Source: a virus (taxonomy: Duplodnaviria; Heunggongvirae; Uroviricota; Caudoviricetes). Taken from it: a stretch of 64,000 nt of DNA. Both the position numbers and the translations under genes were made by a program. The stretch's first letter is position 1. Each line of letters starts with the position of its first letter. The stretch is taken from the IMG/VR virus record IMGVR_UViG_3300006143_000002. One strand, 5' to 3'. Of the stretch, positions 13,304 to 63,229 are shown piece after piece. A model generated the notes under the pieces. It was given only the letters and a program-made list of their open reading frames with translations. It was not told the DNA's origin and made no database searches.

Positions 13304-13332
13304 ATTATACAATAATTTTGCAATTATGTCAA
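13304..13332 (-). promoter_or_regulatory. consensus promoter TTGACA-N17-TATAAT, with a second TTGACA 9 nt upstream
   Basis: Reverse complement reads CACTTGACAAATAAATACTTGACATAATTGCAAAATTATTGTATAAT. Precedes the RBS AGGAGG of the 12747..13262 gene. Confidence 0.6.
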
Positions 13333-18361: not shown

Positions 18362-20818
18362 TTATACTCCTCCATTTGCATAATATTCATTTCTTAATGA
18401 AATAATATTATCTTTTTTCCTTAGTTCAACTATCTTACTGATATTTTCTTTACCAATATTAATATTTTCTTTTATATTTTCACAAGTATAACCTGTTTCT
18501 GTTCTAGTTTTTATTTGTTTTTGCATAATTATACTTTCACCATCTTCTGCTAGTTCACATTGTTTTAAATCAGATAATTTTACAAAATCATTATTTATAT
18601 TATCTAATATTTTCATATACTCAACACATTTATCATCATATTTATCTTTAATAAATTTATAAAAATAATTCGCAGTTGCATTATATAGTTTTCTTAATTC
18701 TACATTTTTACCATTCATAGTCATTTCATAAACAGTCCTCATAGACTTCCAAAAAGAATAATAACTAAATTTAAGCTTTGTCATAAATGTTCCACATTCA
18801 ATTACAACGCCTTCTATATCTGTGTCTATTAATTCATTTTGATTTTTATGTTGTTCATAAAATTCAGTTAATTGCCTATATGTATCAAATTTAATATATA
18901 CTTGCTTATAATCTGTATCTTTTAATTTTAACGATTTAGCAATTTGCATTAATCCATCATAAGGTATCTTCTCAAAATCTACTTTATTATGAATTATATC
19001 TAATAAGACAACTCTACTTTCTTTTTCATCTATAATATGAGGGTCATTTTCTAAATCTATAACTTCAAATGTCATTGACATATTATTATTTTTTAGAAAT
19101 ACTGTAATATTGTCTATTTGTTCTTCTGTAAATGTATTATAAAATAAATTTTTAAAATACATTGCATATTCTCCACAATTTGAAGATTTACTATGAAATT
19201 GTAAATTATCATTATAATAACTTAAAATGCCCAAGAAACCATTATATTTTTTATAAGCAACAACTTCTTCATCTGTATCAAATAATCTCTTTAAATTAAA
19301 TAATCTACATGATTCTTGTTCGTTTATATTAAAGAACTTTTCATAACCTCTTGCTACTATTTTATTATTTACAGTATCTATAAATAAACCTCTTGCTTTA
19401 ACAGTTTCCTTATCCCATTTATCTTTTTCAAATGCTTTACGTGTAAAGTTGAATGATGATATTCCACCTTCTAATACACTTTCTCTTATATTTCTATTAT
19501 TTCTTAATCTATCTACAATATTTTCTATATTTATTTCTTGTGTATTTACTATTTGTTGGTGTTCTTCCCAAGATGTATCCCTATATAAGTCATTTTTTAT
19601 ACTATGGAAAAATATACCCTTATTTGTTAATTCTGCTACTTTTAGATTTCCACCAAATTCAACACCATCCTCTAATGAGAATGATAAAGGTAAATCTCTC
19701 ATTGGTTTTTCTGGTGCAATATATCTATGTCCGTGTATTTGTATTATTGATTTATTTTTCATGTTTTCTGTATATGATTCGTCAATAGGGAATTTGAAAG
19801 CTCCAACACCATGTATCATTTGACTTGTTGATATTAAAGGTAAATTATTTGGGATAGTATTCAATCCCCCATGACATACAAAATATGTTTGTCCTTTAAA
19901 GTTTATATAAGCCATTTGTCCTAGTTTTCTATAAAACTTTCTCATACTTGATGGGTCTATTGATTTAATTTGTGGTAATGTAAAGTTCATAAATTCTTTA
20001 CTTTTAATCTCGCTATCCAGTTCATTTGCCCAATACCAAATAAATCTTTCATGATTTCCTTCTAATAAAAGTACATTACTTTTTTGACATATACTAATAA
20101 TAAATTCTAATACTTCCTTATTTTGTAGTCCTCTATCTAAATAGTCCCCTACAAATATATAAGCATCTTCATCATTTAAAAATTGATGTAAATTTTGAGA
20201 ATTTACTTCTTCTTGATATTCTGTATATGTTTGTTTTAGTATATATTCTTTTAATGGGTTAAAACAACCATGAATATCTCCTATAATATGTATTCTTTTA
20301 TACTCATTAAAATCAAATTCTTTATTACTAAATGTTTCCCAAAACTTATCTCTAGGAATATCTACCCAACCACTTGTCTTTTCTTGAGTTTCAAATCTTG
20401 CATACATTTTATCAATTACTTCATCAGGAACTCTTTTATAGGCATTTCTTTGATGATTTCTTTCTATACATACTTCTTTTGGTACATCTGTAAATGATAC
20501 TACATACTTTCTATATCTATATGATTCACATAATGAATTATATCTACTAAAATCTGTTGAACGGCTATGTGTTGCATCTATTATAGTAAAATCTCCATTT
20601 TTCATTCTTTTCTCTAATAATTCATATAATAATGACCATATATAAGATTCATTTTCTTGTGATATAGTTGCATCTGTTCCATTTTCTGTCAATATTGGTG
20701 CAGATGCCATCATTCTTATATTATCTGGGCTTATTGTATATTGCTCTAAACCATTTTCTTTTATCCAGGTTGATTTACCTGAACCTGGGCATCCCCTTAA
20801 AACCACTAAATTTCTCAT
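18362..20818 (-). CDS. pnkp: trifunctional polynucleotide kinase / metallophosphatase / RNA ligase (bacterial Pnkp-like)
   Basis: P-loop GCPGSGKST. Calcineurin-like motifs GDIHG, GDYLDRG, GNHE. C-terminal covalent nucleotidyltransferase motifs I KYNG, III TFEVID, IV EGVVIE, V KLK in order. Start set at MRNLVV after RBS GAGAGGTAGG. The ORF-track N-terminal extension overlaps the promoter. Confidence 0.75.
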   Translation of the reverse strand: MRNLVVLRGCPGSGKSTWIKENGLEQYTISPDNIRMMASAPILTENGTDATISQENESYIWSLLYELLEKRMKNGDFTIIDATHSRSTDFSRYNSLCESYRYRKYVVSFTDVPKEVCIERNHQRNAYKRVPDEVIDKMYARFETQEKTSGWVDIPRDKFWETFSNKEFDFNEYKRIHIIGDIHGCFNPLKEYILKQTYTEYQEEVNSQNLHQFLNDEDAYIFVGDYLDRGLQNKEVLEFIISICQKSNVLLLEGNHERFIWYWANELDSEIKSKEFMNFTLPQIKSIDPSSMRKFYRKLGQMAYINFKGQTYFVCHGGLNTIPNNLPLISTSQMIHGVGAFKFPIDESYTENMKNKSIIQIHGHRYIAPEKPMRDLPLSFSLEDGVEFGGNLKVAELTNKGIFFHSIKNDLYRDTSWEEHQQIVNTQEINIENIVDRLRNNRNIRESVLEGGISSFNFTRKAFEKDKWDKETVKARGLFIDTVNNKIVARGYEKFFNINEQESCRLFNLKRLFDTDEEVVAYKKYNGFLGILSYYNDNLQFHSKSSNCGEYAMYFKNLFYNTFTEEQIDNITVFLKNNNMSMTFEVIDLENDPHIIDEKESRVVLLDIIHNKVDFEKIPYDGLMQIAKSLKLKDTDYKQVYIKFDTYRQLTEFYEQHKNQNELIDTDIEGVVIECGTFMTKLKFSYYSFWKSMRTVYEMTMNGKNVELRKLYNATANYFYKFIKDKYDDKCVEYMKILDNINNDFVKLSDLKQCELAEDGESIIMQKQIKTRTETGYTCENIKENINIGKENISKIVELRKKDNIISLRNEYYANGGV

Positions 20819-20836
20819 AAAATTTCCTACCTCTCT

Positions 20837-20865
20837 GTTTTTGTTTATTATATAATAAGTTTTAA
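20837..20865 (-). promoter_or_regulatory. consensus promoter (extended family member), drives pnkp
   Basis: Reverse complement reads CTTGACATATTTTAAAACTTATTATATAAT. Confidence 0.6.
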
Positions 20866-20881
20866 AATATGTCAAGTATTT

Positions 20882-21114: not shown

Positions 21115-21747
21115 TTATTTATTTCTATCCTTATAAACATCTTCATACATCTTTCTCCACAAATTGTAACCATCTGCTTCTCCACCTCGTTTATAATGTC
21201 CCATCGTTGGTATCCAAATACAATCATAATCATATACTAATTCATAACTATTAGAAGTTATTATAATATGTATATCAATATTTTTTTCTTTACAATCATC
21301 TAATATCAACCTGAATAATGACCTATAAGTAAGCATTAAATCTATACTAACACCACTATCACAACCATCAATTAAAATATATCCTTCTTTAATATTACCA
21401 TCAACTAATTGTCTTACATAATCACCTATCTTTGGAACATTTATATCTACAAGTGTATCAAATACTCTTTGCCCCTCAGAACTTACTATATGTTTTGCTA
21501 ATGACTGCATATCACCTGATAATGTAAAACTATCTGCTTTATGTTTTCCTTCTTCATACACATTTACATTTATATATTTCTTTTTCTGCTCATCTAAATA
21601 ATCACAAATTTGGGTACAAGCATAAGTCTTTCCACTACCATTAGGTCCTGTTAAAACAGTTACCCCTGAATTTATTTCAATATCTTTTACATTATAACAT
21701 TTACCCTCTAATTTAAACTTTATCATTAAAAACTGCCTCCTATACAT
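21115..21747 (-). CDS. P-loop ATPase
   Basis: Walker A VLTGPNGSGKT and a Walker B-like ILIDGCDSG. Confidence 0.45.
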   Translation of the reverse strand: MYRRQFLMIKFKLEGKCYNVKDIEINSGVTVLTGPNGSGKTYACTQICDYLDEQKKKYINVNVYEEGKHKADSFTLSGDMQSLAKHIVSSEGQRVFDTLVDINVPKIGDYVRQLVDGNIKEGYILIDGCDSGVSIDLMLTYRSLFRLILDDCKEKNIDIHIIITSNSYELVYDYDCIWIPTMGHYKRGGEADGYNLWRKMYEDVYKDRNK

Positions 21748-23902: not shown

Positions 23903-23977
23903 TGGCAGGAGTGCTAGGATTTGAACCCAGACAAACAGTTTTGGAGACTGCTGTGCTACCATTAACACTACACTCCT
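23903..23977 (-). tRNA. tRNA-Trp (anticodon CCA)
   Basis: 75-nt cloverleaf folded by hand: 7-bp acceptor AGGAGTG/CACTCCT, D-stem GTGT/GCAC, anticodon stem GCAGT/ACTGT with loop CTCCAAA, T-arm CTGGG-TTCAAAT-CCTAG, discriminator G and encoded CCA. Confidence 0.65.
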
Positions 23978-23986
23978 ATATAGGGT

Positions 23987-24062
23987 TGGAGCTTCATATT
24001 GGATTCGAACCAATGGTCACAGATTTGCAATCTGTTGCCTTAACCAACTTGGCTAATGAAGC
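23987..24062 (-). tRNA. tRNA-Cys (anticodon GCA)
   Basis: 76 nt: acceptor GCTTCAT/ATGAAGC, anticodon stem ACAGA/TCTGT with loop TTGCAAA, T-arm ATTGG-TTCGAAT-CCAAT, encoded CCA. Confidence 0.65.
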
Positions 24063-24086: not shown

Positions 24087-24875
24087 CTACTCTTCTTCTG
24101 GTACTAATAAAAATTTATCTATAAAATCTCTATCTTTATTAAATAATGGTATTTCTGTATCACAGAATATTCCCTCATCTTTTCTATATACACAAAATCC
24201 TCTTTTCCATTTAGTTTCTAAATTATTCCAATTTATATTGTACTTTTCCATTAACATATCTTGTATATCACTTGTATTTTTCTTATCAAGTTGTTTTTGA
24301 CTAAACTTTGATTGTCCTAGTGATTGTATTGAGTTTCTTGATGCATCTTGTTGCCTCCATAAAAAGTAATTACATACATCTTCCTTTGGTATATTAAATG
24401 CTCTTGCATCAAACATTGCTATACCCATTTTCTTTTGCCATTTATTAAATAAGTCTAAATTCTCTGGTTCATCTGAATTTGCATAACCAGACCAAGCTAA
24501 TACCTTTTGTGTTACAAACTTATTAAAATACATTGTTGCTGCTGATGCTATTACTGAACATACCTTTTGTAATCTATAATCAAAATAACTATCAGTAGTT
24601 AATTTATCCCAGTCTGTTAATAATAAACTTATCTCATCAGACTGTGTATATGCTAACTTGCACCCTTGAACACTCAATATAAGATTTTCACAAACATATT
24701 GCATTACTTGTGATAGTATTTCATCAAATGGTTTATCTAAACCTCTTGTAAATGTGTGGAATGCTTTACCATCTATTCTTACTATAACAGGTGTTCTTTT
24801 TGTAAGTTTAACATCTGATACAGATTCATAATCTTTCATTCTATCACTTAATGTTTTTATCTTTGAATTTGACAT
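24087..24875 (-). CDS. thg1: Thg1-like protein (tRNA 3'-5' nucleotidyltransferase, TLP)
   Basis: Collinear matches to the Thg1 family: VIVRIDGKAFHTFT, KPFD, LAYTQSDEISLLL, FDARAFNIPKEDVCNYFLWRQQDASRNSI, KYNINWNNLETKWKRG. Confidence 0.8.
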   Translation of the reverse strand: MSNSKIKTLSDRMKDYESVSDVKLTKRTPVIVRIDGKAFHTFTRGLDKPFDEILSQVMQYVCENLILSVQGCKLAYTQSDEISLLLTDWDKLTTDSYFDYRLQKVCSVIASAATMYFNKFVTQKVLAWSGYANSDEPENLDLFNKWQKKMGIAMFDARAFNIPKEDVCNYFLWRQQDASRNSIQSLGQSKFSQKQLDKKNTSDIQDMLMEKYNINWNNLETKWKRGFCVYRKDEGIFCDTEIPLFNKDRDFIDKFLLVPEEE

Positions 24876-24918
24876 TATATACTCCTCCTTAAAACTATTA
24901 TTTACTTATTATACCTAT

Positions 24919-24947
24919 ATTATACTATAAGTTTTAAAATATGTCAA
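24919..24947 (-). promoter_or_regulatory. consensus promoter (extended family), drives the Thg1-like gene
   Basis: Reverse complement reads CCTTGACATATTTTAAAACTTATAGTATAAT. Confidence 0.6.
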
Positions 24948-24970
24948 GGGTTTTTTCAAAATTTATTAAA

Positions 24971-25021
24971 AAATTTAAGACAGTTGAAATTTATACTTAT
25001 AAACTTATATCAACTGTCTAT
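24971..25021 (-). terminator. hairpin terminator (9-bp stem GACAGTTGA/TCAACTGTC, 22-nt loop)
   Basis: Follows the stop of the nucleotidyltransferase gene, then TTAAATTTTTTAAT, just before the promoter at 24919..24947. Confidence 0.4.
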
Positions 25022-25057
25022 CTAAAATAGTTTCTAGGGAAACCTGATAAAGAAGAA

Positions 25058-25861
25058 CTATATTGTAAAATCATAATTTAAAGCTTTCTCATTTATATCT
25101 ATCAACCATTTATTTATTTTATGATAATCTGGTGTCTTTTGTAATGTACTTTCATCATAGTATTGGTGTATCTCTTTATCTAATCTGTCAAACATATCAA
25201 ATATTTCTTCTAATGTATATTTTCCTGCTCTTATATCTAATAATAATTTTCTCTCTTCTTCTGGTCTGTAAGAACAATAATCATGTGTTAATAATATTTG
25301 TTTTGCACAATATAGTAATCTTATAGCATGATAAGCAAATTTAGTATCATAACCAAATTTTTCAACTAAATCTTGTCTGCCAGTTCCATTTTGCTTCTTT
25401 ATATCTAGTTTATACCTTTGTGACATTGCAAATCCACAAAACTTTTTATATATTTCCTTAGATAAAAATTCTTTTCTTATACTTCTTAACTCTTTTCCAA
25501 AATCATCTATATGAATTATATCTTCATCTCTACAAAATAGTATATCAATATTATTTGGTACACCTTGCATAGCGTCTCTAACAAATTTATTTATATGGCA
25601 TATTACTATATCAATATCTTCTTTTGTATTATGTTCTCCAAAATTTTTACCACCAGACTTATTATATTCATTTATAGATTTTAATCCTAAATAATATTCT
25701 TTTGGTGGAATACATACACCCTTATAATCAGTATCAGATGTTTCTACATTTGTTCCATATATAACTGAACCTGCTTTAGTTAATAATATTGTTCTGTCTT
25801 CCAACCACATCATATTATCTGGTAGAACATGTTCTATATCTTTAAAACTAACTTTTGCCAT
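25058..25861 (-). CDS. Pol-beta-superfamily nucleotidyltransferase (RlaP / PF10127-like, RNA-repair-associated type)
   Basis: GSVIYGTNVETSDTDYKGV matches the hG[GS]...SDxD nucleotidyltransferase signature. 267 aa. Adjacent to the Thg1-like gene. Confidence 0.5.
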   Translation of the reverse strand: MAKVSFKDIEHVLPDNMMWLEDRTILLTKAGSVIYGTNVETSDTDYKGVCIPPKEYYLGLKSINEYNKSGGKNFGEHNTKEDIDIVICHINKFVRDAMQGVPNNIDILFCRDEDIIHIDDFGKELRSIRKEFLSKEIYKKFCGFAMSQRYKLDIKKQNGTGRQDLVEKFGYDTKFAYHAIRLLYCAKQILLTHDYCSYRPEEERKLLLDIRAGKYTLEEIFDMFDRLDKEIHQYYDESTLQKTPDYHKINKWLIDINEKALNYDFTI

Positions 25862-25872
25862 TTATATCACCT

Positions 25873-26679
25873 CTATTTACTTATATTGAATAAAGCTGAA
25901 GTATTCTCACCCATCATAGTAGTAGGGAATTGTCCATTCCATTTTTCAATCATTTTTTGTTTAATTTCTAATTCTTTTAATTGTAATGTCTTATCTGTTA
26001 TTTGATTATTTTGTAGTTCCATTACTTTTGCATCTTTTTCTGCAATACTTATTTCCTTTTCATTTTGAATTTTTTGTTTTTCTAATTCTGCTTGTGCAGT
26101 TACTACCTCTTGTTGTTTAACTGCTTTTGCTTCTATTGCTGCGTTAAAAGCATCACTAAAATCTATATTTGTTGTATTAAATTCTGTTATAGTAATTCCT
26201 CTACTATCTATTTTATTTGTTAATGATTCTCTAATCATTGAAGATACTTCTGCTCTTTTTGTTATTAACTCTTCTGCTGTATATTGTGCCATTACACTCT
26301 TAACACTCTCTAATATAGCAGGATTTATAACTATATTTTCAAAGTCTGTACCAACCTCTCTATATAATTTATTTGCTGTGTCTTTTCTTACATTATAATT
26401 TAATGCTATTGTTACTGATACTGTTTGTAAATCTTTGGTGCTACTTTCAGATGTAGCATCTATTTTCTTTGTTTTGCAATCTACTAATACAATTTTTTCT
26501 ATAAATGGTATTTTACCATTTAGTCCTTCTTGTAATACATCGTTCTGTACTTTCCCAAATTGGGTCTTTACACCAACACATCCTGTTGGAATTGTTTTAA
26601 ATGAATTAAATAATACTATTACTGCAACTATTAAAATTATACCTAATACAATCCATTTAATTGTCTTTCTGTTTTCCAT
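25873..26679 (-). CDS. SPFH / Band-7 (prohibitin/HflK-like) membrane protein
   Basis: N-terminal TM helix, then GCVGVKTQFGKVQNDVLQEGLNGKIPFIEKI, the start of an SPFH domain, and a C-terminal coiled-coil. Confidence 0.6.
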   Translation of the reverse strand: MENRKTIKWIVLGIILIVAVIVLFNSFKTIPTGCVGVKTQFGKVQNDVLQEGLNGKIPFIEKIVLVDCKTKKIDATSESSTKDLQTVSVTIALNYNVRKDTANKLYREVGTDFENIVINPAILESVKSVMAQYTAEELITKRAEVSSMIRESLTNKIDSRGITITEFNTTNIDFSDAFNAAIEAKAVKQQEVVTAQAELEKQKIQNEKEISIAEKDAKVMELQNNQITDKTLQLKELEIKQKMIEKWNGQFPTTMMGENTSALFNISK

Positions 26680-26750: not shown

Positions 26751-29597
26751 TTATCTATTTAGTCTAGTAATATCTAAAATTTGATATATTGCATTATCAT
26801 TATTTGCACTTATTAAATCAAAATACTCTACACCTTTTTCTTTTGCTGCATCTTCACTTGTTGCTTTAACATCATAATATTTATTTACAAAGGGATTACC
26901 CTTTAATGATAAAAACTCTGCTTTAACTCTATATGTTGATATTCTATGTACATCTTTAGAATTACCTTGTTTTACATCAGGAGCTGTAACAGGTCCTTTC
27001 TCTGTCCAAAAATCTCTTCCTTGTGCTTTACTTTTATTTATTCTATCTATTCTTGCATTTGTTTTTAATATAGGTGTATATGCTCTTTTATTATTTAATT
27101 GTGCTTGTTTACACCAATCAAGTCTATCTATCATATCTGTATCTACTAATGGCATAAAAATAGAATTTTCTCTTAATTTCTTTCTATGTTTTAATGATTC
27201 TAATGTTTTATCATACACATCGCTATTATCATTTATATTTTTAAGTAATATACTCATTAAATTTAGGTCATCTCTAGTATATTTAACTTCTCTTCTTCTC
27301 ATTCCTATTGCTTTTAATTTATTTTGACAATATGTATCTGTTGATTGAAATGGTTGTAACTCAATTTCATGTTCAACTTCTCTTCTATATTGCTCTAATA
27401 TATCTTCATGGTCGTTTGTTAATCTAACTAATTTATTTTTGTTTTTTGCATAATTAGTTAATACTTCTAAAGCATATATAATTTCATCAAGATGAGAATA
27501 TGTATCCCCAGAAATTCCCATTTGATTACATTTTCTTTCAAATGTATTATTAACTTCATCTATAATGGGTTGGTATCTATCTTCTGATTCTTCTGTTATT
27601 ACTTTTACTATATCTGTTAATTGCTCATCTGTAAAGCCACTTTCTATTATTTTTGTATTATCTGCATTTTGTTCAGTAATATTTTCAAGTTCTTCAGGTA
27701 TATCACCTGTCTTATGTATAATTATTTTTCCATTTTCTTTTAACTCTAAATCTCTTAAAAGTTTGTAGAATACATTTGCACCAAATACACCTTGATATTT
27801 TTTACAAAATTGAATATATACTTCTCTTTTTGTTTTACAATTTTTTAATAATTCAAGTACACTTTCTTTCATCTCATCTGTAAATTGGTTATATTTCTTA
27901 AATTCTAATTTACCTCTTCTGTTTGTTAAAGTATCAAGATATGTAGAATTATAGGAAACATTAAATTTCTTGTTTACTATATCCATACATTCTGATTTTG
28001 TATGGTTACTACATATTGTTTTTACAAATTCATATACTTCATCTGCTATTCCTTTATTAGATTTAGTTGTATTTTTATAACTTCTTGAATTAGCCATTCT
28101 ATTACCTATTTCTTCTTTTGTTTCTGTTCTGTAATTTAATTTTCTACTTTTTGCAAAATATATTAAGTTGTTATAAGTCATTTTAGATTGTAATTCAGGA
28201 AATTTAGATTGTAATATTCTTAATGCTTCTCTTATTGTATTACCATTTACTGCTTTAGCAACATCATCATATATGCTAGAATATATAGATTGTTTTATAA
28301 GCTTAGATTGATTATCTGTAACTTTTGATACTCTACTTGTTTTAATACCTTTTTTAGATAATCTTTGTCTAAATGCTACTATTGTTATATCTTTAAGTAC
28401 ATCTATTTTATTTCTAACTTTTTCTAATATTTCTGCTGATGTATAACCTTTATCTACATAACTTTTAATTAGTTCCCAATCATTATCAGTTAATGCACTT
28501 GCTCTTCCACCTCTTACAGATTCTTTTTTAAATGGTATTTCTTTTCTATGTATAAAATTATGTAATCCTTTATAATTGTAATTTTTAAATTCATCATTAC
28601 TATTTACTATTTCTAATAATTCATTTATTGTTTTATCCCCATTAAATGTTCTTAAATATTCCTCTAATTTTATGGATATAGGGTCAGTTTCTCTTCCCCT
28701 TTTAGGTTTTGGAGCTTTAGATACTTTTAAATCATTTAGTTTAGTAATAAATTGTATATAAGGATATTTATTTGGAAACACTAAATTAAATTTAGCAAAT
28801 ATAGATGCATTATCTGTATCTTCCTTTAATAACTCTTCTATATAAATTTCTTCTAAAAATGAGAATTTACCAATAGATTCTTTTGTATTGAATGCTTTAA
28901 CCATATCTAAATTACTAATCTCTTGTATAAATGTTTTTAAATCACATTTATTAGGAAACATACCAATAAATATATTATATACTTCTTTTAACCCACTACA
29001 ACTTTTTATTAGTCTTTCTATTTCTCTAGCCTCTTCATTTGTAAAAATACTTGAATTGTTTTTGAATTTAATTAAATATTTATTACACATTTCCTCTAGT
29101 TTAGGCATTGTCATTCCTAAATATGTATATTTGTTTTGTATCTTTTCTAAACTTTCTTCTATTGTATATTTATTACCTAATTCTTTTACATACTCTACTA
29201 TATCATTTGTATATCGCATGTTGCCCATCTCCTTTCCTGTTCCTATTAAGTTTAATTTTAATAACTTTTCTTCAAATTCTTTTTCTGTTAAATCTATATG
29301 GCTTTTTGGATATTTATTTCTAAATTCTTCAAATACCTCTTTTATCTCATTATTACTGTTTAAACATTCATAGATAAATTCTATTTCTTCTAATGAGAAT
29401 ATATCAAACTCACCTCTTTCAAAATAAGGTATTCCATTTTCTTTACAATACTGCTTTAAACTATTTATTGTATATTTAGATGATGTGTAAGTATTAACTA
29501 ATACTTTACAATTTTCAATATTCATTGATTTAGATATTCCTAAAATATAATTCTTTATGTCAGCATTGCTTTCAAATATCGAATATAAACCTGCCAT
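26751..29597 (-). CDS. large protein with six or more tandem ~30-60-aa repeats, function unknown
   Basis: 948 aa. Recurring module ...EI/VY..F...(F/Y)P.......F/L..L..., for example KEVFEEFRNKYP, KEVYNIFIGMFPNK, ASIFAKFNLVFPNKYP, REVYIQFCKKYQGV. AT-hook-like KPKRGR. Confidence 0.45.
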   Translation of the reverse strand: MAGLYSIFESNADIKNYILGISKSMNIENCKVLVNTYTSSKYTINSLKQYCKENGIPYFERGEFDIFSLEEIEFIYECLNSNNEIKEVFEEFRNKYPKSHIDLTEKEFEEKLLKLNLIGTGKEMGNMRYTNDIVEYVKELGNKYTIEESLEKIQNKYTYLGMTMPKLEEMCNKYLIKFKNNSSIFTNEEAREIERLIKSCSGLKEVYNIFIGMFPNKCDLKTFIQEISNLDMVKAFNTKESIGKFSFLEEIYIEELLKEDTDNASIFAKFNLVFPNKYPYIQFITKLNDLKVSKAPKPKRGRETDPISIKLEEYLRTFNGDKTINELLEIVNSNDEFKNYNYKGLHNFIHRKEIPFKKESVRGGRASALTDNDWELIKSYVDKGYTSAEILEKVRNKIDVLKDITIVAFRQRLSKKGIKTSRVSKVTDNQSKLIKQSIYSSIYDDVAKAVNGNTIREALRILQSKFPELQSKMTYNNLIYFAKSRKLNYRTETKEEIGNRMANSRSYKNTTKSNKGIADEVYEFVKTICSNHTKSECMDIVNKKFNVSYNSTYLDTLTNRRGKLEFKKYNQFTDEMKESVLELLKNCKTKREVYIQFCKKYQGVFGANVFYKLLRDLELKENGKIIIHKTGDIPEELENITEQNADNTKIIESGFTDEQLTDIVKVITEESEDRYQPIIDEVNNTFERKCNQMGISGDTYSHLDEIIYALEVLTNYAKNKNKLVRLTNDHEDILEQYRREVEHEIELQPFQSTDTYCQNKLKAIGMRRREVKYTRDDLNLMSILLKNINDNSDVYDKTLESLKHRKKLRENSIFMPLVDTDMIDRLDWCKQAQLNNKRAYTPILKTNARIDRINKSKAQGRDFWTEKGPVTAPDVKQGNSKDVHRISTYRVKAEFLSLKGNPFVNKYYDVKATSEDAAKEKGVEYFDLISANNDNAIYQILDITRLNR

Positions 29598-29704: not shown

Positions 29705-31694
29705 TTAAAATAAACTATTATTTTTAGTATTTCCACCTATTAAATCTAAAAATGCTTGTTCTGTAATTATTTCAACACCATATTTTTGGGCATCTTTATT
29801 TTTGCTTGAACCACTATCTGGAGTATTTGTTATTAAATACTTACAAGACTTTATAGCACTTGATAGTTCATATCCATAACTTTCAATATACTTTTCAAAT
29901 GCACTTCTTTTCATTGTATTTAATGCACCTGTTACAGCAACTTTAATTATTTCTTTATTAGATACTTCTTTATACTTTATTCTATTTCCTATATATAATA
30001 TATTTTTTAATTTAGTTGTTTGATTTTCTATTATAGATTTAGTTGTAGCTTCTTTGACAATTTTTAATAACTTGTCACTTAGAATATTATCTATATATCC
30101 TAAACCTTTTATATCATTTATTAGCTGCTTTACTGTATTTGTTTCTTTTGCTAAATCTTTTGCAGTTTTATCACCTAATCTTGGGATATTTAAAGCAATT
30201 AAAGCTTTTTCTACATCTACCTTATTATTATATAGTTTTCCAAAAAATTCTACAGCCTTTCTATCTGTTATACTTAAATTAGATAAGTAAGCCCAGCTAT
30301 CAATTTTTTCTTTAGTTTCTAAACAATATAAATCTGATATACTCATGATTCTAAATTTTACTAAATATTGTTCCATAAGTGTCCAAGCCATACCATCTGT
30401 TTCGCCTATTGTTTCACACCATTGTCTTAAATCACTATATTCTATATTTGGACAATCTTTAAATGCACATTTTAAATCTACACCATCCCAAATTAAAGTA
30501 TGTCCACATATTGAGCATTTTTCTGGTAAATCTACATCTGCTGCTTCTAATGTGTCCATGTGCTTTGGAATAACCTCACCACTTCTGCATACAGAAATTG
30601 TAGCACCAACACCTAAACCATTATCTAATAAATATTGAGCATTATTTCCAGTTACATTATGCACTACTGCACCAGACAATTCTATTGGCTCAATTTCTAA
30701 TACTGGTATATATCTTTGTGTTCTTGATAATTCCCATTTAATATTATTTATTGTAGTTTCTTTTTCTTCTGCTGCAAATTTAAAAGCACACTCATCATAA
30801 ATATATGATTTTGCATCTTCATGATATATAACTTCTGTATTTGAGATTACAACACCATCTAATTCGTATCCCATCGTATATTTAAAACTTTCAAATGTAT
30901 CTTTCATATATTCTTCAAATTTATCTTTTCTATCTAATATAGTGGTAACAGTTTCAATAACATTCTTAAAATTCCACTTCAACCAATCTTTAATGTCTTC
31001 TTTGGCTGGATTTCTTCTACTACATACACTATCTGTAACAATATTATTCATATCCCTTTCTTGTCCTGTTATTTTATAAGTTATAAAATCAATTAATTTT
31101 ATATCATCTATTGAATAATCTTTAGAGTTTATCCAACCAGCACATAAATTTCTTGCATTTTTAGCTTCGGGATATTTATATTTAACCTTTTCCCAGTTTT
31201 CAACAGATATTTCTAATTCTCCTCTTACACCACCTGTAAAATTCTTATCTTCTATTTCATTACCTACAATTATTCTCGCCTTATCTGTAATATCTTTTCC
31301 CTCTTGACCATTACCTCTTGTAACTGCTTTAATCAATTTACCACCTTCATAATAAAATACACCAGTTAAACCATCTAGTTTAGGAGATAAAGATACAAAC
31401 CCATTTTTAAATCTTTCAGGAACTTCATCATAAGTTCTACATTTATCAAGACTTTTTACTAATTGATACTTATGTTTTACTTTATGCCCTGTTTGTTTGT
31501 AACCCCATCCGAGGAACTTGCAATATTTTAGAAGTAGGATTTAATAATCTTAGTCTATCAACCAAATTATCAAACTCTACATCTGTCAATGTTTGTGTAC
31601 CATCTGTATAATACTTCTCAGACTGTTCCTTTATAATTCTTTCTAATTTTTCAATTTCTTCTTTTTCATAATCACCGAATAACACAATAGTCAC
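29705..31694 (-). CDS. ligA: NAD+-dependent DNA ligase (LigA), split into two ORFs by a 1-nt frame shift at a CAAACAAACA repeat (~31486..31500)
   Basis: Upstream 70-aa ORF carries domain Ia (YYTDGTQTLTDVEFDNL...PTSKILQVPRMG). After a +1 shift the frame continues HKVKHKYQLVKSLDK...KLDG (adenylation motif I)...TRGNGQEGKDIT, then a Cys4 Zn finger CSICGHT..C and a C-terminal BRCT-like domain. Total ~663 aa. Confidence 0.65.
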
Positions 31695-32565
31695 ACTCCT
31701 TATTAAATATTCCTTTTTTTATATGATGTCTTATGTGCATAGCCAATTTCATACTCTTACCAAAATTTGGATTAGATTTACCTTTCATAGAACCATCTCT
31801 AATACCAGATTTAAGCTCTGCTTTATATGTATTCCACTTTTCTGATTTTATCATGCCATTTTTAGTAGATATAGATGTTTTTTCTCTTTCCAGTACATTA
31901 CTAAATCTTTCTTTCTGTGCATTTGATAAATTTTGTTTCATACTATCTGTAAAATGTTTACCATACATCGGATTTTTATCTCCTGATAAATCAGATTTTT
32001 TATGCCTTCCCTCCTTGTATGCCAATTTTAAAGATATACTTCTTTTATTTCTTTCACTTTCTGTTTGTATTCTTCCTTTATTATACTTACCCATATCTTT
32101 ACTCTTCAATGTTTCTGATATTCTTTTTCTGGTTTCTTCACTGTGATAATATCCATATAACTCTATTTTTCTTTTCATAGATTCTTTTAACTTATTTCTT
32201 GTTTCTTGTGGTATTTTTCTTTCTTTTGCACTTAAAGACATTTTTTCTTTTGTTGATAGAGTATGTTCATCTTTTGAACCTTTTCCACCATGTTGAATAT
32301 TATAACAATATTCATCTTCTAGAACTTCTTTGGTTATGATTTCATTTTCAAATTTCAAAGCTTCATCATGACTTTCAAAAAATTTTATGATTTCTCTACT
32401 AAAACTTTCTTTCCCATACTTTCTAACTGCATTTAAAAAATGATACCCAGAACCAATATAACCATCATTTATGTTATTTGTACTATGAACACCATAGTAA
32501 TAATAAGGTGTTCCAATCCTTCTTGTGATATAAACAAAATGATACTTTTTCATATAATATTTCAC
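31672..32565 (-). CDS. GIY-YIG homing-endonuclease-like protein
   Basis: N-terminus YHFVYITRRIGTPYYYYGVHST...GYIGSG has GIY-x10-YIG spacing. K/S-rich C-terminus. Lies directly upstream of ligA. Confidence 0.5.
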   Translation of the reverse strand: MKYYMKKYHFVYITRRIGTPYYYYGVHSTNNINDGYIGSGYHFLNAVRKYGKESFSREIIKFFESHDEALKFENEIITKEVLEDEYCYNIQHGGKGSKDEHTLSTKEKMSLSAKERKIPQETRNKLKESMKRKIELYGYYHSEETRKRISETLKSKDMGKYNKGRIQTESERNKRSISLKLAYKEGRHKKSDLSGDKNPMYGKHFTDSMKQNLSNAQKERFSNVLEREKTSISTKNGMIKSEKWNTYKAELKSGIRDGSMKGKSNPNFGKSMKLAMHIRHHIKKGIFNKECDYCVIR

Positions 32566-34556: not shown

Positions 34557-34585
34557 ATTATACTATAAGTTTTAAAATATGTCAA
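34557..34585 (-). promoter_or_regulatory. consensus promoter (extended family)
   Basis: Reverse complement reads CTTGACATATTTTAAAACTTATAGTATAAT. Confidence 0.6.
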
Positions 34586-34767: not shown

Positions 34768-34859
34768 TGGCGACATAGCTAGGATTTGAACCTAGGAACC
34801 CATTTCTGGATTGCCAGTTTTCAAGACTGGTGCATTAAACCAAACTCTGCCACTATGCC
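34768..34859 (-). tRNA. tRNA-Ser (anticodon TGA), type II
   Basis: 92 nt: acceptor GGCATAG/CTATGTC, 3-bp D-stem with long loop, anticodon stem CCAGT/ACTGG with loop CTTGAAA, long variable arm, T-arm CTAGG-TTCAAAT-CCTAG, encoded CCA. Confidence 0.6.
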
Positions 34860-34872
34860 CTATTTTTATTTA

Positions 34873-34944
34873 CAGCCATTGTTGGATTCGAACCAACCTC
34901 TCCTTACATTAGTAAAGTAATTTTTCCTACTAAACTAAATGACT
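34873..34944 (-). tRNA. tRNA-like gene, non-canonical (good acceptor and T-arm, aberrant D/anticodon region)
   Basis: Acceptor AGTCATT/AATGGCT, T-arm GTTGG-TTCGAAT-CCAAC. The central region folds as CTTTAC-TAAT-GTAAGG rather than a 7-nt anticodon loop. Confidence 0.3.
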
Positions 34945-35032
34945 ATATTAAAAAGATGCTTGATTTCTGCAGCTCTCAGCATCTTTTTGCCTAATCTCTA
35001 TATAGTGAATTCTGCCTATATATTTTAGACTT

Positions 35033-35103
35033 GCCTTTGAAATGGATTCGAACCATTGACTCCCTGTCGCATACAGGGGATTTTCCCACTAAACTATCAA
35101 AGG
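35033..35103 (-). tRNA. tRNA-like gene, anticodon loop TATGCGA (possible TGC/Ala, with A at position 33)
   Basis: Acceptor CCTTTGA/TCAAAGG, anticodon stem CCCTG/CAGGG, T-arm AATGG-TTCGAAT-CCATT. The D-arm is irregular. Confidence 0.35.
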
Positions 35104-35197
35104 GTATAATGTAAAGTAGGAGTAAATTATATTGACGTCAAATATAAATTTTATATCTAATGCGAGATACTATATTAACCTACTTTATTTTTGCATA

Positions 35198-35259
35198 TCA
35201 CCTGTTATGGATTCGAACCACTTTCTCCTATACATATATTTTCATACATGCAGCAGGTG
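35198..35259 (-). tRNA. tRNA-like fragment (T-arm and acceptor only, ~62 nt)
   Basis: TTCGAAT T-loop with a 6-bp acceptor. Too short for a D-arm and anticodon arm, so probably a pseudo-tRNA. Confidence 0.2.
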
Positions 35260-35264
35260 TTATT

Positions 35265-35339
35265 TGGTCGCAGGGGTTGGATTTGAACCAACATCGTCCG
35301 AAATATGGGCTCAGCTATGCTATATTACACCACCCTGCT
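35265..35339 (-). tRNA. tRNA-like gene, possible CAT anticodon, non-canonical
   Basis: Acceptor (A)GCAGGG/CCCTGC(G) with a 1:72 mismatch, T-arm GTTGG-TTCAAAT-CCAAC, encoded CCA. Anticodon stem CTGAG/TTCGG has wobble pairs and loop CCCATAT. D-arm is poor. Confidence 0.3.
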
Positions 35340-35343
35340 ATAT

Positions 35344-35419
35344 TGGGTGCGAGGGCTGGATTCGAACCAGCGAACTCTAGCTTATGAGGCTAGTGAGATG
35401 CCAACTTCTCCACCTCGCA
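35344..35419 (-). tRNA. tRNA-Met/Ile2 (anticodon CAT)
   Basis: 76-nt canonical cloverleaf: acceptor TGCGAGG/CCTCGCA, D-stem GAGA/TCTC, anticodon stem CTAGC/GCTAG with loop CTCATAA, T-arm GCTGG-TTCGAAT-CCAGC, discriminator C and CCA. Confidence 0.65.
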
Positions 35420-35454
35420 GTATTAAATTATTAGCATTACCTAATTAAAGGCTG

Positions 35455-35526
35455 GTCGAGTACATTGGATTCAAACCAATTCCATCATCCACCTGTTGGA
35501 TGCCGTGCACCATACACCATACTCGA
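35455..35526 (-). tRNA. tRNA-like gene, anticodon loop AACAGGT (non-canonical, no U33)
   Basis: Perfect 7-bp acceptor TCGAGTA/TACTCGA, D-stem GTGT/GCAC, anticodon stem CATCC/GGATG, T-arm ATTGG-TTTGAAT-CCAAT with one extra nucleotide before the acceptor. Confidence 0.35.
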
Positions 35527-35700
35527 TATATATATATACAAATGATTTAAGGTATATCATCAACCACACATCGAGCATTATTTATTTTTCATAGACTAAA
35601 CTATGATTAATCTATTTCATCTCATGCTCTATTTTGTTCACCTTTGAGAACCCTATGAAATAGATTATATATTACTTATACATAATATATAACATCTTTA

Positions 35701-35793
35701 TGGCGATAAGGGAGGGATTCGAACCCTCGATACATAATTAAATGTATGTCTCCTTAGCAGAGAGATGGTTTAAACCTACTCACCCACCTTACC
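35701..35793 (-). tRNA. tRNA-Ser (anticodon GCT), type II
   Basis: 93 nt: acceptor GGTAAGG/CCTTATC, anticodon stem TCTCT/GGAGA with loop CTGCTAA, long variable-arm hairpin ATACAT...ATGTAT, T-arm GAGGG-TTCGAAT-CCCTC, discriminator G and CCA. Confidence 0.6.
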
Positions 35794-36358: not shown

Positions 36359-37903
36359 TTATTTAATTTTTTTATAAATTCTACTAAATGCCTCATATTC
36401 ACTTAAACATACTGGCTTAAAATTATTAACATCTACACCAACATTATATGAATTTTTAATCTTTTTTATAATATGGCTATTGCTATGAATATGCCCATAT
36501 AGATGAGTGCTACCATATTCTTTTTGTTTCCATGAAGATATTGGAAAATGAAATAATATGTATTTCTTATTATTGACTGTTATTTCTTTATAATCAACTA
36601 TCTCCTCAAATAAAGACTGGTCAAAATCTTTTCCAATACATATATTATCATGATTTCCTAATATAAGTATCTTTCTACCTCGTAATCTCTTAACAATTTC
36701 ATTAGTTTCTTTACTATTTCTAAATGATAAATCACCTAATATGAACACTAAATCATCATCATGTTTTACTGTACTATTCCATCTTCTTATAAGTTCTTCA
36801 TCATGAATTTTTATATATTCCTTATTAACCTCCATTTTATATTTATCCCAAAGGTCATCTGGTATATTATAAATTTCTTCATTTGTCAAACCTTCATCTT
36901 TTAATTTATTTACTATTGCTTGATGTTGGGTTATTCCACATAACTCCCATCTTTTTGGTTCAAAGTCTAATATATTTTCATGTCCAAAATGTAAGTCAGA
37001 TGTAAAAAATATTTTATCTGAGGTTGGTAACGATAGACCGCTTTTTCTTCTCCATTTATTTCTTTTTGGTGTAAAAATATTTCTTAAATATTTTTCAAAT
37101 ATTTTAACAGAGATTTTACTTAAAAATTCTTTAACCATGTCTTCACTATTTACTTCATTAAAAAACATATTTCTATGTGACTTTAATTGATTTATACTAT
37201 CATTTGCCAAATCTCTTGCTTCTTCTAATGAATATTTGCTTAATTTAGCATTAGTTAAAACTTCAATATTATCTTCCATATAATTATGGGAATTCATAGA
37301 TTTTTTAAAATCAAATGTTTCTATATATTTTTCTGCAAATAAATTTAATCTTAGTATATGATGTAATTGTTTTCCATCATATCCATATTTTTCTATCTTA
37401 TCTCTCAACCCTTCATAAGGATGTTCTAATGCTTCTAATTTATTTAAAGCCATACCATAAGTACAAACTATTAATTTTACTGGATTTGCACTAGAAATCA
37501 TATCAGCATTATCTAATATTTCTAACATATCATTTTTAAATAATGGGTTTAATATTCTAAATTCTGTATGTAATATTTCAAGATATTTTATATTTTGTTT
37601 TCTAAATAATTCTGTTATTAACCTAATATCTTTAACATCTATATGTTCATTATTATCTAATATTATTGTTTCAGATATATATTCATCCTTATTTATTAAG
37701 TTTTCAAAGGTAGGTAATACAATAGCTACTGTATCTATATCAGATTTATACTCATCTGTATATAAATCTAAATTATAATTTTGACTTCCTTGTAAGGCTA
37801 CCATTAAAAACTCATATTGTGGTCTCAATCTTTTTAATTCATTTACATGGTACTTTATACCTTTAAATATATTATTTTTTCTTTGTTTATCTATATCTGC
37901 CAT
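36359..37903 (-). CDS. Pol-beta nucleotidyltransferase (RlaP-like) fused to a calcineurin-like metallophosphoesterase
   Basis: N-terminal ALQGSQNYNLDLYTDEYKSDIDTVAIV nucleotidyltransferase signature. C-terminal metallophosphoesterase motifs SDLHFGHEN, ILGDLSF, GNHDN, GHIH. Lies directly upstream of the tRNA-array promoter. Confidence 0.55.
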   Translation of the reverse strand: MADIDKQRKNNIFKGIKYHVNELKRLRPQYEFLMVALQGSQNYNLDLYTDEYKSDIDTVAIVLPTFENLINKDEYISETIILDNNEHIDVKDIRLITELFRKQNIKYLEILHTEFRILNPLFKNDMLEILDNADMISSANPVKLIVCTYGMALNKLEALEHPYEGLRDKIEKYGYDGKQLHHILRLNLFAEKYIETFDFKKSMNSHNYMEDNIEVLTNAKLSKYSLEEARDLANDSINQLKSHRNMFFNEVNSEDMVKEFLSKISVKIFEKYLRNIFTPKRNKWRRKSGLSLPTSDKIFFTSDLHFGHENILDFEPKRWELCGITQHQAIVNKLKDEGLTNEEIYNIPDDLWDKYKMEVNKEYIKIHDEELIRRWNSTVKHDDDLVFILGDLSFRNSKETNEIVKRLRGRKILILGNHDNICIGKDFDQSLFEEIVDYKEITVNNKKYILFHFPISSWKQKEYGSTHLYGHIHSNSHIIKKIKNSYNVGVDVNNFKPVCLSEYEAFSRIYKKIK

Positions 37904-38820: not shown

Positions 38821-39498
38821 CTATATATTTATTTTAACATCTTGTGCTTTTAATTTATCTAATGCCTCTTGAAAATAATCCATAGTTAAACCTGTTTCTG
38901 TATCTACATGTATTAAATTATCTCCATACTTATATAAATCAAATATATCATCATCTATAATTAGAAAAGGTATATTTTTAAATGTAAACATTCCACTTCC
39001 TTTAAAATGATAATCTTCTATTTCATCTTCTCTCCAAGATATATAATTTTCTTTTGGTATTCTATTAGTCCTACCACCTATATAGGCTTTAACTTTATTT
39101 ATCTTAAAAACTGTATTCCATTCTGTTGGTGTCAATTCATATCTTCTTGTAGTTGTTAATATAATTGTATATGGTGCAACATCATATAACTTATTTAAAA
39201 ATTCAACTGCTTCCTTTTGAAAACACCATTGTTGCATAAAATTTCTATATTCAAAATCTTTATTTTCATCTTCTTTATGAACTAAAGCATTATGGATTTT
39301 TATTATATAATTACTACCTGCAGTTACACCATCCATATCTAAATATAGTATAAACTTATATTTTTCATCTGTTTCTATTTTATATGGCTCTAATGATTTC
39401 ACTAATTCATCTGGTGTATATCTACTTAATAATTTCTTAAAATCTTTCTGTAATTCTTCATTTGATAAATCCTTAAATTTCATTTTACCAACCTTCAC
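38821..39498 (-). CDS. HAD-superfamily phosphatase
   Basis: Motif I ILYLDMDGVTA (hhhhDxDGV), motif II IILTTT, late DDD. Confidence 0.45.
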   Translation of the reverse strand: MKVGKMKFKDLSNEELQKDFKKLLSRYTPDELVKSLEPYKIETDEKYKFILYLDMDGVTAGSNYIIKIHNALVHKEDENKDFEYRNFMQQWCFQKEAVEFLNKLYDVAPYTIILTTTRRYELTPTEWNTVFKINKVKAYIGGRTNRIPKENYISWREDEIEDYHFKGSGMFTFKNIPFLIIDDDIFDLYKYGDNLIHVDTETGLTMDYFQEALDKLKAQDVKINI

Positions 39499-62380: not shown

Positions 62381-63229
62381 CTATATTTCATATTGACATT
62401 TAACACAAGCATCTACATTGTTTGAAAACATCATTCTTTCAATAATCTTTCTATCTTTATTTTTCTTTAATGGTTTAGTTATTTCTATTAATATACAACT
62501 TGTATTTTTAGATTCTACAACTCTATTACATATTATACCATTCTTAAATCTAGCAGAAAGAACACTGTTATTTTCAAAATCATAATTATATTGTTCTTTT
62601 AGTATTTTTATAAGTTCTTCGCAAGACTTACTATTTGCATCATTTTTATTTATAAATGTAGATGCTGCATATACAAGTGCATCTCTTCTTGAATATAAAT
62701 GTTTTAAATAAATATAATCGTATAGTCTTTCTTTTGGTAAATTAAATGCTTTTACCTCAAATATTGATTTTAATAATTTTTGTTTATAAACAGATGTATC
62801 TAATATATGTTCTAAATGTCTATTTTTATTTTTATATTCCTGTTGTTTAATTTCATCTTGCAAAGCATCGTTGAATATACTTACAGCTTTACTTGCAACT
62901 ACACTTGATATATAGCTTATTGTTTTACTTCCCTTTAACAGAGATAGTGTACCATTTCCATTTATAGGTACAAATATTAAATCTATTTCATTATGACTAT
63001 AATACCCTAATGTACAACCTGGTAATTCTCTACATAATGTTCTCACAGTCTGAACCATTGCAGATGAATATACAGCATCATAAGGTTTTTTAAACTCTTT
63101 ACAAAACTCCTTAAACTCTTGTTGTTTTACCCTTACTATATAAGGTTCTGTCTTAATTATTTTTAATTCCTTATCGCTTTCATATATTCCAAAAATCTCA
63201 CTCAATTTAATCATTTCTTGTTTAATCAT
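62381..63229 (-). CDS. divergent Thg1-like paralogue lacking the catalytic carboxylates
   Basis: PYIVRVKQQEFKEFCKEFKKPYD, GYYSHNEIDLIFV, KAFNLPKERLYDYIYLKH align with the RIDGxxFH, SDE and FNIPKE...NYFxWR blocks of Thg1/TLP, but D to K and D to N substitutions sit at metal-binding positions. Confidence 0.5.
   Translation of the reverse strand: MIKQEMIKLSEIFGIYESDKELKIIKTEPYIVRVKQQEFKEFCKEFKKPYDAVYSSAMVQTVRTLCRELPGCTLGYYSHNEIDLIFVPINGNGTLSLLKGSKTISYISSVVASKAVSIFNDALQDEIKQQEYKNKNRHLEHILDTSVYKQKLLKSIFEVKAFNLPKERLYDYIYLKHLYSRRDALVYAASTFINKNDANSKSCEELIKILKEQYNYDFENNSVLSARFKNGIICNRVVESKNTSCILIEITKPLKKNKDRKIIERMMFSNNVDACVKCQYEI

Follow-up and report, generated by a model that had tools for sequence, protein, structure and literature searches.

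The window, a stretch of 64,000 nucleotides of DNA from a virus of the Caudoviricetes (IMG/VR record IMGVR_UViG_3300006143_000002), encodes a Thg1-like protein (TLP), a predicted 3'-5' RNA polymerase, close to a nucleotidyltransferase of the RlaP family. We propose, with a probability of about 60%, that these two proteins form a conserved RNA-repair module together with a small ATPase and a Pnkp-like enzyme encoded nearby, and that this module, shared by a clade of large AT-rich phages, would refill and seal cut tRNAs. The domain identities of the components and their synteny are direct observations, and all the enzymology of the module is deduced from homology. The window has 27% GC, its long open reading frames (ORFs) are all on the minus strand, and its gene content is of phage type. 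The source is a large gut phage with a predicted tRNA-mending kit of the kind already predicted for big phages. The four components of the proposed module are the following:

25058..25861 (-): RlaP-family Pol-beta nucleotidyltransferase, 267 amino acids (Pfam, PHROG, active-site motifs, AlphaFold2 model)
24087..24875 (-): TLP, Thg1-like 3'-5' RNA polymerase, 262 amino acids (Pfam, PHROG, alignment to a solved TLP)
21115..21747 (-): small P-loop (ABC-like) ATPase, about 205 amino acids (Walker A motif GPNGSGKT; Pfam NPHP3_N, 32.8 bits)
18362..20818 (-): Pnkp-like kinase, metallophosphatase and Rnl1-type RNA ligase, 818 amino acids, located 3.2 kb downstream from TLP

The TLP, the RlaP protein and their Pnkp partner

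The TLP matches Pfam Thg1 (PF04446) over residues 11-163 (3e-31, 108.5 bits for a cut-off of 29.2) and phrog_4717 (7.9e-83). It aligns end to end (E 1.2e-61) with the solved TLP of Bacillus thuringiensis (BtTLP, PDB 4KGK and 4KGM), whose E-value is 50 orders of magnitude better than that of any other solved relative. The initial 117 residues of the alignment are gapless, with an offset of five, and place D35, D80 and E81 on the catalytic carboxylates D30, D75 and E76 of BtTLP (D29, D76 and E77 of hTHG1). They also place E17, R33 and H40 on BtTLP E12, R28 and H35; the catalytic carboxylates of Thg1 and TLPs and the role of these three BtTLP residues in holding the incoming nucleotide have been described (PMC3701042). 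All six residues are invariant across 17 phage TLPs. The C-terminal half matches BtTLP residues 124-238 (4e-25), and the Pfam Thg1C profile alone scores slightly under its cut-off (24.2 for 26.3). The initial annotation had given the size of the TLP correctly and had recognised it from the blocks RIDGKAFH (33-40), SDE (79-81), FNIPKE...NYFLWRQQD (160-177) and KYNINWN (211-217). All of these are present, and they align with the Thg1 catalytic core.

At the position of the motif DCHINNLYN of C. albicans Thg1, the phage protein has DASRNSIQS. The eukaryotic HINNLYN block is thus missing, and the protein therefore belongs with the bacterial-type TLPs. Together with BtTLP as the closest solved relative, this agrees with the earlier assignment to the TLP type rather than to tRNA-His-specific Thg1. 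Overall, the 262-residue protein is by its sequence a genuine TLP-type 3'-5' RNA polymerase with an intact predicted active site. Two studies describe templated repair of 5'-truncated tRNA as an in vitro activity of bacterial TLPs (PMC3061083, PMC4820378); our literature search found no experiment on a phage TLP. The TLPs of the nearest named phages (Fusobacterium phage Fnu1 and the Bacillus Bastille-like phages) are less than 50% identical to this one. The Bastille-like phages encode their TLP and RlaP about 20 kb apart, and no RlaP was found adjoining the TLP of Fnu1.

The 267-residue protein matches Pfam RlaP (PF10127) over residues 23-255 (1.7e-17, 64.4 bits for a cut-off of 23) and phrog_388 (2.7e-65), and PF10127 is carried by all 120 of its homologues listed. 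RlaPs require a Pol-beta nucleotidyltransferase site with three strictly conserved aspartates (PMC12776372). The corresponding G31-S32, D43xD45 and D84 are 100% conserved in 121 homologues. The AlphaFold2 model (mean predicted local distance difference test [pLDDT] score of 88.6) has a nucleotidyltransferase domain, whose beta strands extend to about residue 118, and then a helical domain. These data make the protein a genuine RlaP, a predicted 3'-end nucleotidyltransferase of a family whose defining trait is an association with RNA repair, in line with the RlaP-like label it had been given. We also searched for the alternative raised along with that label, a clade of antibiotic-resistance or cyclic oligonucleotide-based antiphage signalling system (CBASS) enzymes, and found no profile or close fold match. 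The best PADLOC hit (0.004) was to an unrelated two-transmembrane (2TM) effector, no NCBIfam resistance nucleotidyltransferase matched, and the best fold matches in PDB (Hailong HalB and ANT(4')) were generic, with TM scores below 0.5 and 10-14% identity. Nor did the searches lend support to a toxin nucleotidyltransferase. A sequence search against solved structures, in a PDB set that lacks the solved PfRlaP structure, gave no match.

The initial annotation had cast this protein as a CCA-type 3'-end repair enzyme, which the data do not bear out. The PolyA_pol head domain of CCA enzymes (PF01743) has no match in it at E <= 0.01 in the Pfam search. The characterised RlaPs, from Pseudomonas, add one or two nucleoside monophosphates to an RNA 3'-OH with little base preference, act on a split tRNA preferentially at the 3'-OH of the anticodon-loop break rather than at its other 3' end, and rescue the aminoacylation of tRNAs that lost one nucleotide before ligation (PMC12776372). 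By analogy, the biochemistry of these relatives argues for nucleotide fill-in at breaks and not for CCA repair.

The third enzyme, which the initial annotation missed, is the actual conserved partner of the pair and a predicted heal-and-seal RNA repair enzyme. It combines the Pfam domains AAA_33 (1.4e-22), Metallophos (1e-15, calcineurin-type) and RNA_lig_T4_1 (9.4e-33), and it matches phrog_8238 ('RNA ligase') end to end (1e-201). Its PDB matches are the kinase and phosphatase domains of C. thermocellum Pnkp, T4 Pnk, and a tRNA ligase. We set its start at Met 20818, following the 818-residue gene call in another contig of the same phage (L014). Pnkp has no Hen1 methyltransferase next to it among those ORFs of the window that were scanned, nor in the contigs L001, L010, L014 and L104 (the relatives among them are described below). 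The interval between TLP and Pnkp holds, besides the small ATPase, genes for an HNH/sigma-70-region-4 protein and for two proteins of unknown function. Besides the NPHP3_N match, this ATPase has weak matches to AAA_23 and SMC_N in Pfam and to the PtuA, AriA and GajA ATPase heads in PADLOC. In addition, its sequence SSEGQ is similar to an ABC signature and ILIDGCDSG to a Walker B motif.

Synteny, transcription units and tRNA genes

An identical RlaP protein is encoded on 20 metagenomic contigs. Three of the four that we inspected (L013-L015, the same phage in other samples or metagenomes) have the same RlaP-TLP order and keep the tRNA genes described below. In the closest distinct relative, a 213-kb viral contig with a TLP 68% identical to ours (L001), the genes for LigA, a 948-residue protein, RlaP, TLP, the ATPase and Pnkp lie back to back; this locus has no tRNA gene within 10 kb, and no Band7 or sigma gene. 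The order is RlaP-DUF6076-TLP-ATPase-Pnkp in L104 (TLP 62% identical), Band7-RlaP-TLP in L105 (64%), and TLP-tRNA-Cys-sigma-ATPase-Pnkp in L010 (74%), where the tRNA-Cys gene comes right after the TLP gene. In L001, L010 and L104, the small ATPase is thus flanked by the TLP on one side and Pnkp on the other, if in L010 with the inserted genes, as in the window. The RlaP gene is associated with an RNA ligase in the window, through the Rnl1-type domain of Pnkp, and contiguously so in L001 and L104. A 66%-identical RlaP in L019 adjoins an RNA ligase and a polynucleotide kinase (PNK), the classical RlaP context. The conserved core is RlaP-TLP-ATPase-Pnkp, seen in three relatives (full in L001 and L104, partial in L010), and the tRNA genes, the sigma-like gene and Band7 are variable inserts. 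Hence, contrary to what had been suggested, the tRNA genes are not a fixed part of the unit: L010 keeps tRNA-Cys alone and L001 neither of them.

At least 589 IMG/VR contigs encode a TLP. To place this locus among others, we analysed 88 viral TLP loci with 10-kb flanks. The commonest neighbour families in an unbiased clustering of the ORFs are a phosphoesterase of about 200 residues (28 loci) and RlaP (26 loci). Profile searches find RlaP-type genes in 27 loci, nine of them at 1.5 kb or less and on either side of the TLP, PNK-like kinases in 29, and PolyA_pol/CCA-enzyme-like genes in 13. At least one other marker of RNA-end repair lies within 10 kb on either side in 43 of the 88 loci. After dereplication at 70% TLP identity, RlaP is within 10 kb in 11 of 31 lineages and within 2 kb in 5 of 31. 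Among GTDB genomes, RlaP lies within 8 kb in 11 of 79 TLP loci, many of which are contigs of gut or rumen metagenome-assembled genomes and possibly phage themselves. We read the linkage of TLPs to repair genes as recurrent but loose. Of the 88 loci, 23 have tRNA genes within 10 kb, and in 13 the distance is about 1.6 kb or less; the isoacceptors are varied. Only 3 of the roughly 160 tRNA genes near the 88 TLP genes are tRNA-His, and all three encode G-1 opposite C73. These genes (L031 4264-4338, L046 3840-3914 and L079 4224-4297) lie about 6 kb from the TLP and share two U-U mismatches, at the acceptor-stem pairs 4:69 and 5:68. Four loci (L051, L052, L056 and L069) have tRNAs with a CUA anticodon (amber-suppressor type, 'Pyl' in ARAGORN) 0.5-1.1 kb from the TLP, which hints at stop-codon recoding in those phages.

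The features around the TLP and RlaP genes that bear on their transcription are the following:

25873..26679 (-): Band7/SPFH membrane protein (Pfam Band_7, 1.9e-34), 11 nt upstream of the RlaP gene
24978..25019 (-): hairpin resembling a terminator, 3' of RlaP, with a stem of 17 bp and then the U-rich run UAAAUUUUUU
24919..24947 (-): perfect sigma-70-type promoter before the TLP gene, TTGACATATTTTAAAACTTATAGTATAAT (12/12 for TTGACA-17-TATAAT)
23987..24062 (-): tRNA-Cys(GCA), separated by 24 nt from the stop codon of the TLP gene (called by ARAGORN, and by Rfam with 66.9 bits)
23903..23977 (-): tRNA-Trp(CCA) (ARAGORN, and Rfam at 59.4 bits)
20847..20875 (-): perfect sigma-70-type promoter before the Pnkp gene, TTGACATATTTTAAAACTTATTATATAAT, nearly identical to the TLP promoter
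13304-13332, 20847-20875, 24919-24947, 34557-34585, 45236-45264 and 55666-55694 (-): the six perfect promoters of the window (12/12 consensus)

All these features are on the minus strand, and the order of transcription is Band7/SPFH, RlaP, TLP, tRNA-Cys and tRNA-Trp. The tRNA genes called by both ARAGORN and Rfam do adjoin the TLP gene, as had been noted. The initial annotation had placed the TLP directly downstream of them, which reverses the order: because all the genes are coded on the minus strand, the tRNAs are downstream of the TLP. The annotation had also assigned RlaP and TLP to one operon, and this is doubtful. Their spacer of 182 nt holds both the terminator-like hairpin (minimum free energy -19.5 kcal/mol, z = -2.8) and the perfect promoter, which has an AGGAGG ribosome-binding site on its 3' side. 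Because of these two elements, RlaP and TLP are probably not in one operon. The RlaP gene starts 11 nt past the Band7/SPFH gene and looks coupled to it rather than to the TLP. The likely units, as predicted from the sequence, are Band7-RlaP, TLP-tRNA-Cys-tRNA-Trp, and Pnkp.

Perfect TTGACA-17-TATAAT promoters are found six times on the minus strand for 0.08 expected by chance, and five of them share an almost identical 29-mer. The presence of the same consensus promoter, of host type, before TLP and Pnkp suggests that they may be expressed jointly and early. Before its TLP gene, L001 has a near-consensus copy of this promoter and a further relative, L009, a perfect one. Two of the six promoters have their -35 boxes at the TTG 'starts' of the mechanically called ORFs 18362-20875 (837 residues) and 53115-55694, and these ORFs therefore start further downstream.

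The acceptor stems of tRNA-Cys and tRNA-Trp are fully paired, and both genes encode CCA. From their distribution among relatives, these genes look like a lineage-specific insertion and not like a fixed pairing of substrate and enzyme.

Several genes next to the conserved core recur elsewhere or have unusual structures. Band7/SPFH (prohibitin-like) genes lie within 2 kb of the TLP, on either side, in several unrelated lineages (L105, L063, L108, L112, L115, L155, L185 and, in phage Fnu1, L103). The 948-residue protein at 26751-29597 (-) has no Pfam or PHROG match; its counterpart in L001 (43% identity) is directly upstream of RlaP, and large ORFs of 889 and 689 residues occupy its position in L105 and L104, respectively. 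The NAD-dependent DNA ligase at 29705-32565 (-) looks interrupted. Its 543-residue ORF is without the N-terminal Ia domain, which in L013 is a separate 67-residue gene adjoining a GIY-YIG/NUMOD3 homing endonuclease (31672-32565); in L001 (3638-6118) about 820 bp separate the two parts of the ligase match. The interruption may be an intron or a mobile insertion.

The window encodes further genes of RNA-repair type and a second Thg1 relative:

34768..35793 (-): second tRNA cluster, with Ser, Met, Ser and several atypical tRNA-like genes (ARAGORN, Rfam)
36359..37903 (-): fusion protein of 514 amino acids, a second RlaP-type nucleotidyltransferase with a metallophosphoesterase, adjoining the second tRNA cluster
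38821..39498 (-): HAD_SAK_2 'Swiss Army Knife' phosphatase of RNA-repair type (Pfam HAD_SAK_2, 8.9e-15)
62381..63229 (-): Thg1-like paralogue ('pseudo-TLP'), 282 amino acids (Pfam Thg1, 5e-15)

The N-terminal part of the fusion protein matches phrog_388 (1.5e-8) and the C-terminal part the phosphoesterase family phrog_547 (1.7e-44). Its RlaP helical domain is recovered by our local RlaP profile (8.7e-9) and by BLASTP (1e-7), and the GS and DxD motifs are present. The atypical tRNA-like genes of the adjoining cluster are at 34872-34945, 35033-35103, 35268-35339 and 35453-35525 (-). One has an anticodon loop of 6 nt (ARAGORN 'anticodon aa'), and two others called by ARAGORN, a 71-nt 'Ala' and a 73-nt 'Leu(CAG)' without a long variable arm, are under the Rfam threshold. 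One tRNA of the cluster was detected by Rfam alone.

The pseudo-TLP shares 26% identity with the TLP along its entire length, and its AlphaFold2 model keeps the TLP fold, with BtTLP as the best PDB match (1.5e-15). In this protein, K35 and N80 replace both metal-binding aspartates, H40 is changed to K, and WRQQD to LKHLY. When 1.84 billion representatives were searched exhaustively with a profile, only five 50%-identity clusters of this subfamily were recovered, all at 206 bits or more, with the next match at 121 bits. None of the clusters that cover those positions has kept either aspartate (one match is a C-terminal fragment that falls short of them), and the changes are found in all relatives down to 42% identity. 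The pseudo-TLP is presumably a conserved, non-catalytic Thg1 paralogue. In one relative (L101) it is syntenic with genes for an SNF2 helicase, LemA and Tad8. In the window, an 81-residue ORF at 59716-59961 (-) matches Pfam Tad8 (Type II Thoeris inhibitor, 2.1e-16), which puts this anti-defence gene 2.4 kb downstream of the pseudo-TLP.

A predicted route for the repair of cut tRNAs and its alternatives

The components suggest how such a module could work. Host ribotoxins or defence nucleases would cut tRNAs and may strip nucleotides at the cut. The phosphatase of Pnkp would clear a 2',3'-cyclic phosphate or a 3'-phosphate to leave a 3'-OH, and its kinase would yield a 5'-monophosphate. RlaP could then refill the 3' side without a template, and the TLP could activate the 5'-phosphate and restore lost 5' nucleotides wherever the complementary strand provides a template, i.e., on a 5'-truncated acceptor stem or at a break inside a stem. 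The Rnl1-type ligase domain would seal the nicks. In a parallel route, tRNA-Cys and tRNA-Trp, if co-transcribed with the TLP gene, would supply replacement tRNAs. The more specific version, in which gaps are refilled from both sides (by RlaP untemplated and 5'-3', by the TLP templated and 3'-5') before Rnl1-type sealing, and in which the dead paralogue is a tRNA-binding subunit or a decoy, is a tentative proposal that we find less probable than not by a wide measure. If true, two-sided refilling would be the first defined natural job for phage and bacterial TLPs.

Several observations weigh against the proposed module. RlaP and TLP are apparently in separate transcription units, given the promoter and the hairpin between them. 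The TLP of L009 (69% identical) follows a DNA polymerase gene and has no repair gene within 10 kb, and the 10-kb surroundings of a 75%-identical RlaP (L017/L018) contain no TLP. About half of the 88 surveyed TLP loci lack a repair marker within that distance; these loci are also phylogenetically related, and the counts stand without a matched random-gene control. A more basic difficulty is that the TLP needs a template strand and so cannot restore nucleotides where an anticodon loop, which is unpaired, has been broken; such loops are the best-known target of phage-defence nucleases. It would therefore have to act on acceptor stems truncated at the 5' end or on breaks that lie in a stem. We know of no such stem or acceptor nuclease, or damaged-tRNA substrate, for this phage or its host. 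We found no usable acceptor-stem cleavage site in the phage-tRNA paper of Azam et al.

Three other explanations have to be set against the repair module. The initial annotation saw a coordinated tRNA end-repair unit, in which a single operon comprises RlaP, TLP and both tRNA genes and the adjacent tRNAs are served by the TLP at their 5' ends and by a CCA-type RlaP at their 3' ends. The four features do adjoin, the same phage keeps their order in L013-L015, and in 13 of the 88 TLP loci the nearest tRNA gene is no more than about 1.6 kb away. Paired repair of 5' and 3' ends is moreover a real theme, since another phage lineage has its TLP near a true PolyA_pol/CCA-type enzyme. What fits the context from this proposal is an RNA-repair role for RlaP and TLP; its other parts, the CCA-type activity, the single operon and the anchoring to tRNA genes, fare poorly. 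RlaP lacks the CCA-enzyme head domain and its characterised relatives have little NTP specificity and prefer break-site 3'-OH ends, a terminator-like hairpin and a promoter stand between RlaP and TLP, L001 keeps RlaP-TLP-Pnkp without a tRNA, and both tRNAs, with paired acceptor stems and encoded CCA, need no end editing. We consider this explanation unlikely in its full form. Even less probable is a role of the TLP in the maturation of tRNA-His, by addition of G-1 to the tRNA-His of phage or host. The name 'tRNA-His guanylyltransferase' stands in 162 phage records, and BtTLP can add G-1 in vitro and can complement yeast lacking Thg1. Against this, the sequence is of TLP type, without the HINNLYN anticodon-recognition block of true Thg1, and the window has no tRNA-His gene in ARAGORN or Rfam searches. 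tRNA-His genes are not enriched near phage TLPs and the three found there already encode G-1. Bacterial tRNA-His normally retains a G-1 that the genome encodes (PMC3061083). We thus rejected G-1 addition as the main role of the TLP.

The adjacency could also be incidental, with RlaP serving Pnkp, in the RNA-ligase association classical for RlaP, and the TLP having an unrelated job on other RNAs in the shared early-gene region, for example extending or activating the 5' ends of non-tRNA transcripts or primers. This is the expectation if one stresses the loose linkage in many lineages and the separate promoters of RlaP and TLP. The role of bacterial TLPs is moreover not established, and some eukaryotic TLPs use non-tRNA substrates (PMC5041481). 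Yet only one neighbour family of phage TLPs is commoner than RlaP, which occurs both before and after the TLP gene. The other recurrent neighbour is PNK, the maker of the 5'-phosphate that the TLP needs, as also in the bacterial neighbourhoods described in PMC2904730. We therefore regard a chance association as doubtful, if worth keeping in mind, and favour the repair module.

This module puts a TLP by a kinase that would make 5'-phosphates, an RlaP and a ligase, and it thereby offers a compact and clonable set for testing reverse polymerisation in the repair of tRNA breaks in conflicts of phage and host.

Comparison with known systems

The phage TLP resembles BtTLP in its full-length alignment, in the same three carboxylates, in the same triphosphate-binding Arg, Glu and His, and in having no HINNLYN block; by analogy, templated 3'-5' addition on 5'-truncated tRNA is expected for it. 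It differs from BtTLP in about 26 extra residues in a variable region (125-150), and in being encoded by a phage, adjoining RlaP and near a Pnkp-type ligase. The TLPs of Dictyostelium and Acanthamoeba that edit mitochondrial tRNAs share with the predicted activity the templated 3'-5' rebuilding of tRNA 5' ends. However, they repair encoded mismatches in the first three pairs of the acceptor stem, whereas the phage tRNAs are perfectly paired, and therefore the editing model does not apply. We rejected it as all eight ARAGORN structures of the window have paired acceptor stems, most of them with an encoded CCA.

The RlaP protein shares PF10127, the GS/DxD/D site and the arrangement of a nucleotidyltransferase domain and a helical domain with the RlaPs of P. 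fluorescens and P. aeruginosa and with T4 NrdC.11, and it shares with known RlaPs the genomic association with an RNA ligase. In contrast to them, it belongs to a Firmicutes/phage subgroup, being 55-60% identical to Bacillales proteins, and its partner is an Rnl1-type ligase inside a Pnkp fusion instead of RtcB/RtcA. By its domain matches, the phage Pnkp would carry out the healing and sealing chemistry of T4 Pnk and Rnl1 and of bacterial Pnkp/Hen1. It unites the three predicted activities in one phage protein of 818 residues; in bacterial Pnkp, too, the kinase, metallophosphatase and ligase domains are on one polypeptide. It differs from C. thermocellum Pnkp in having a ligase domain of the T4 Rnl1 type and not of the CthPnkp type, and from these systems in being accompanied by two extra predicted end-refilling polymerases, RlaP and TLP.

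The idea of RNA repair by such genes is already in the comparative-genomics literature of 2010 and 2021, and there are hundreds of similar loci; this locus is a clean test case rather than a discovery. Anantharaman, Iyer and Aravind (2010, PMC2904730) described bacterial neighbourhoods of Thg1, PNK, RNA ligase and Macro genes, with Thg1 also in a caudovirus, and predicted a role in RNA repair. Iyer et al. (2021, PMC7824862) described an RNA-repair kit of jumbo phages with tRNAs, Rnl1, Rnl2 or RtcB ligases, PNK, and HAD and calcineurin phosphatases, and listed RlaP, the CCA enzyme and, 'sporadically', Thg1 as end-restoring enzymes. The parts, and the proposed purpose of countering attacks on tRNA, are the same as here. 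What the passages compared from the two studies do not describe, in a comparison that leaves aside the 2016 paper in which Burroughs and Aravind named RlaP, is the contiguous RlaP-TLP-ATPase-Pnkp module, its shared promoter and the dead paralogue.

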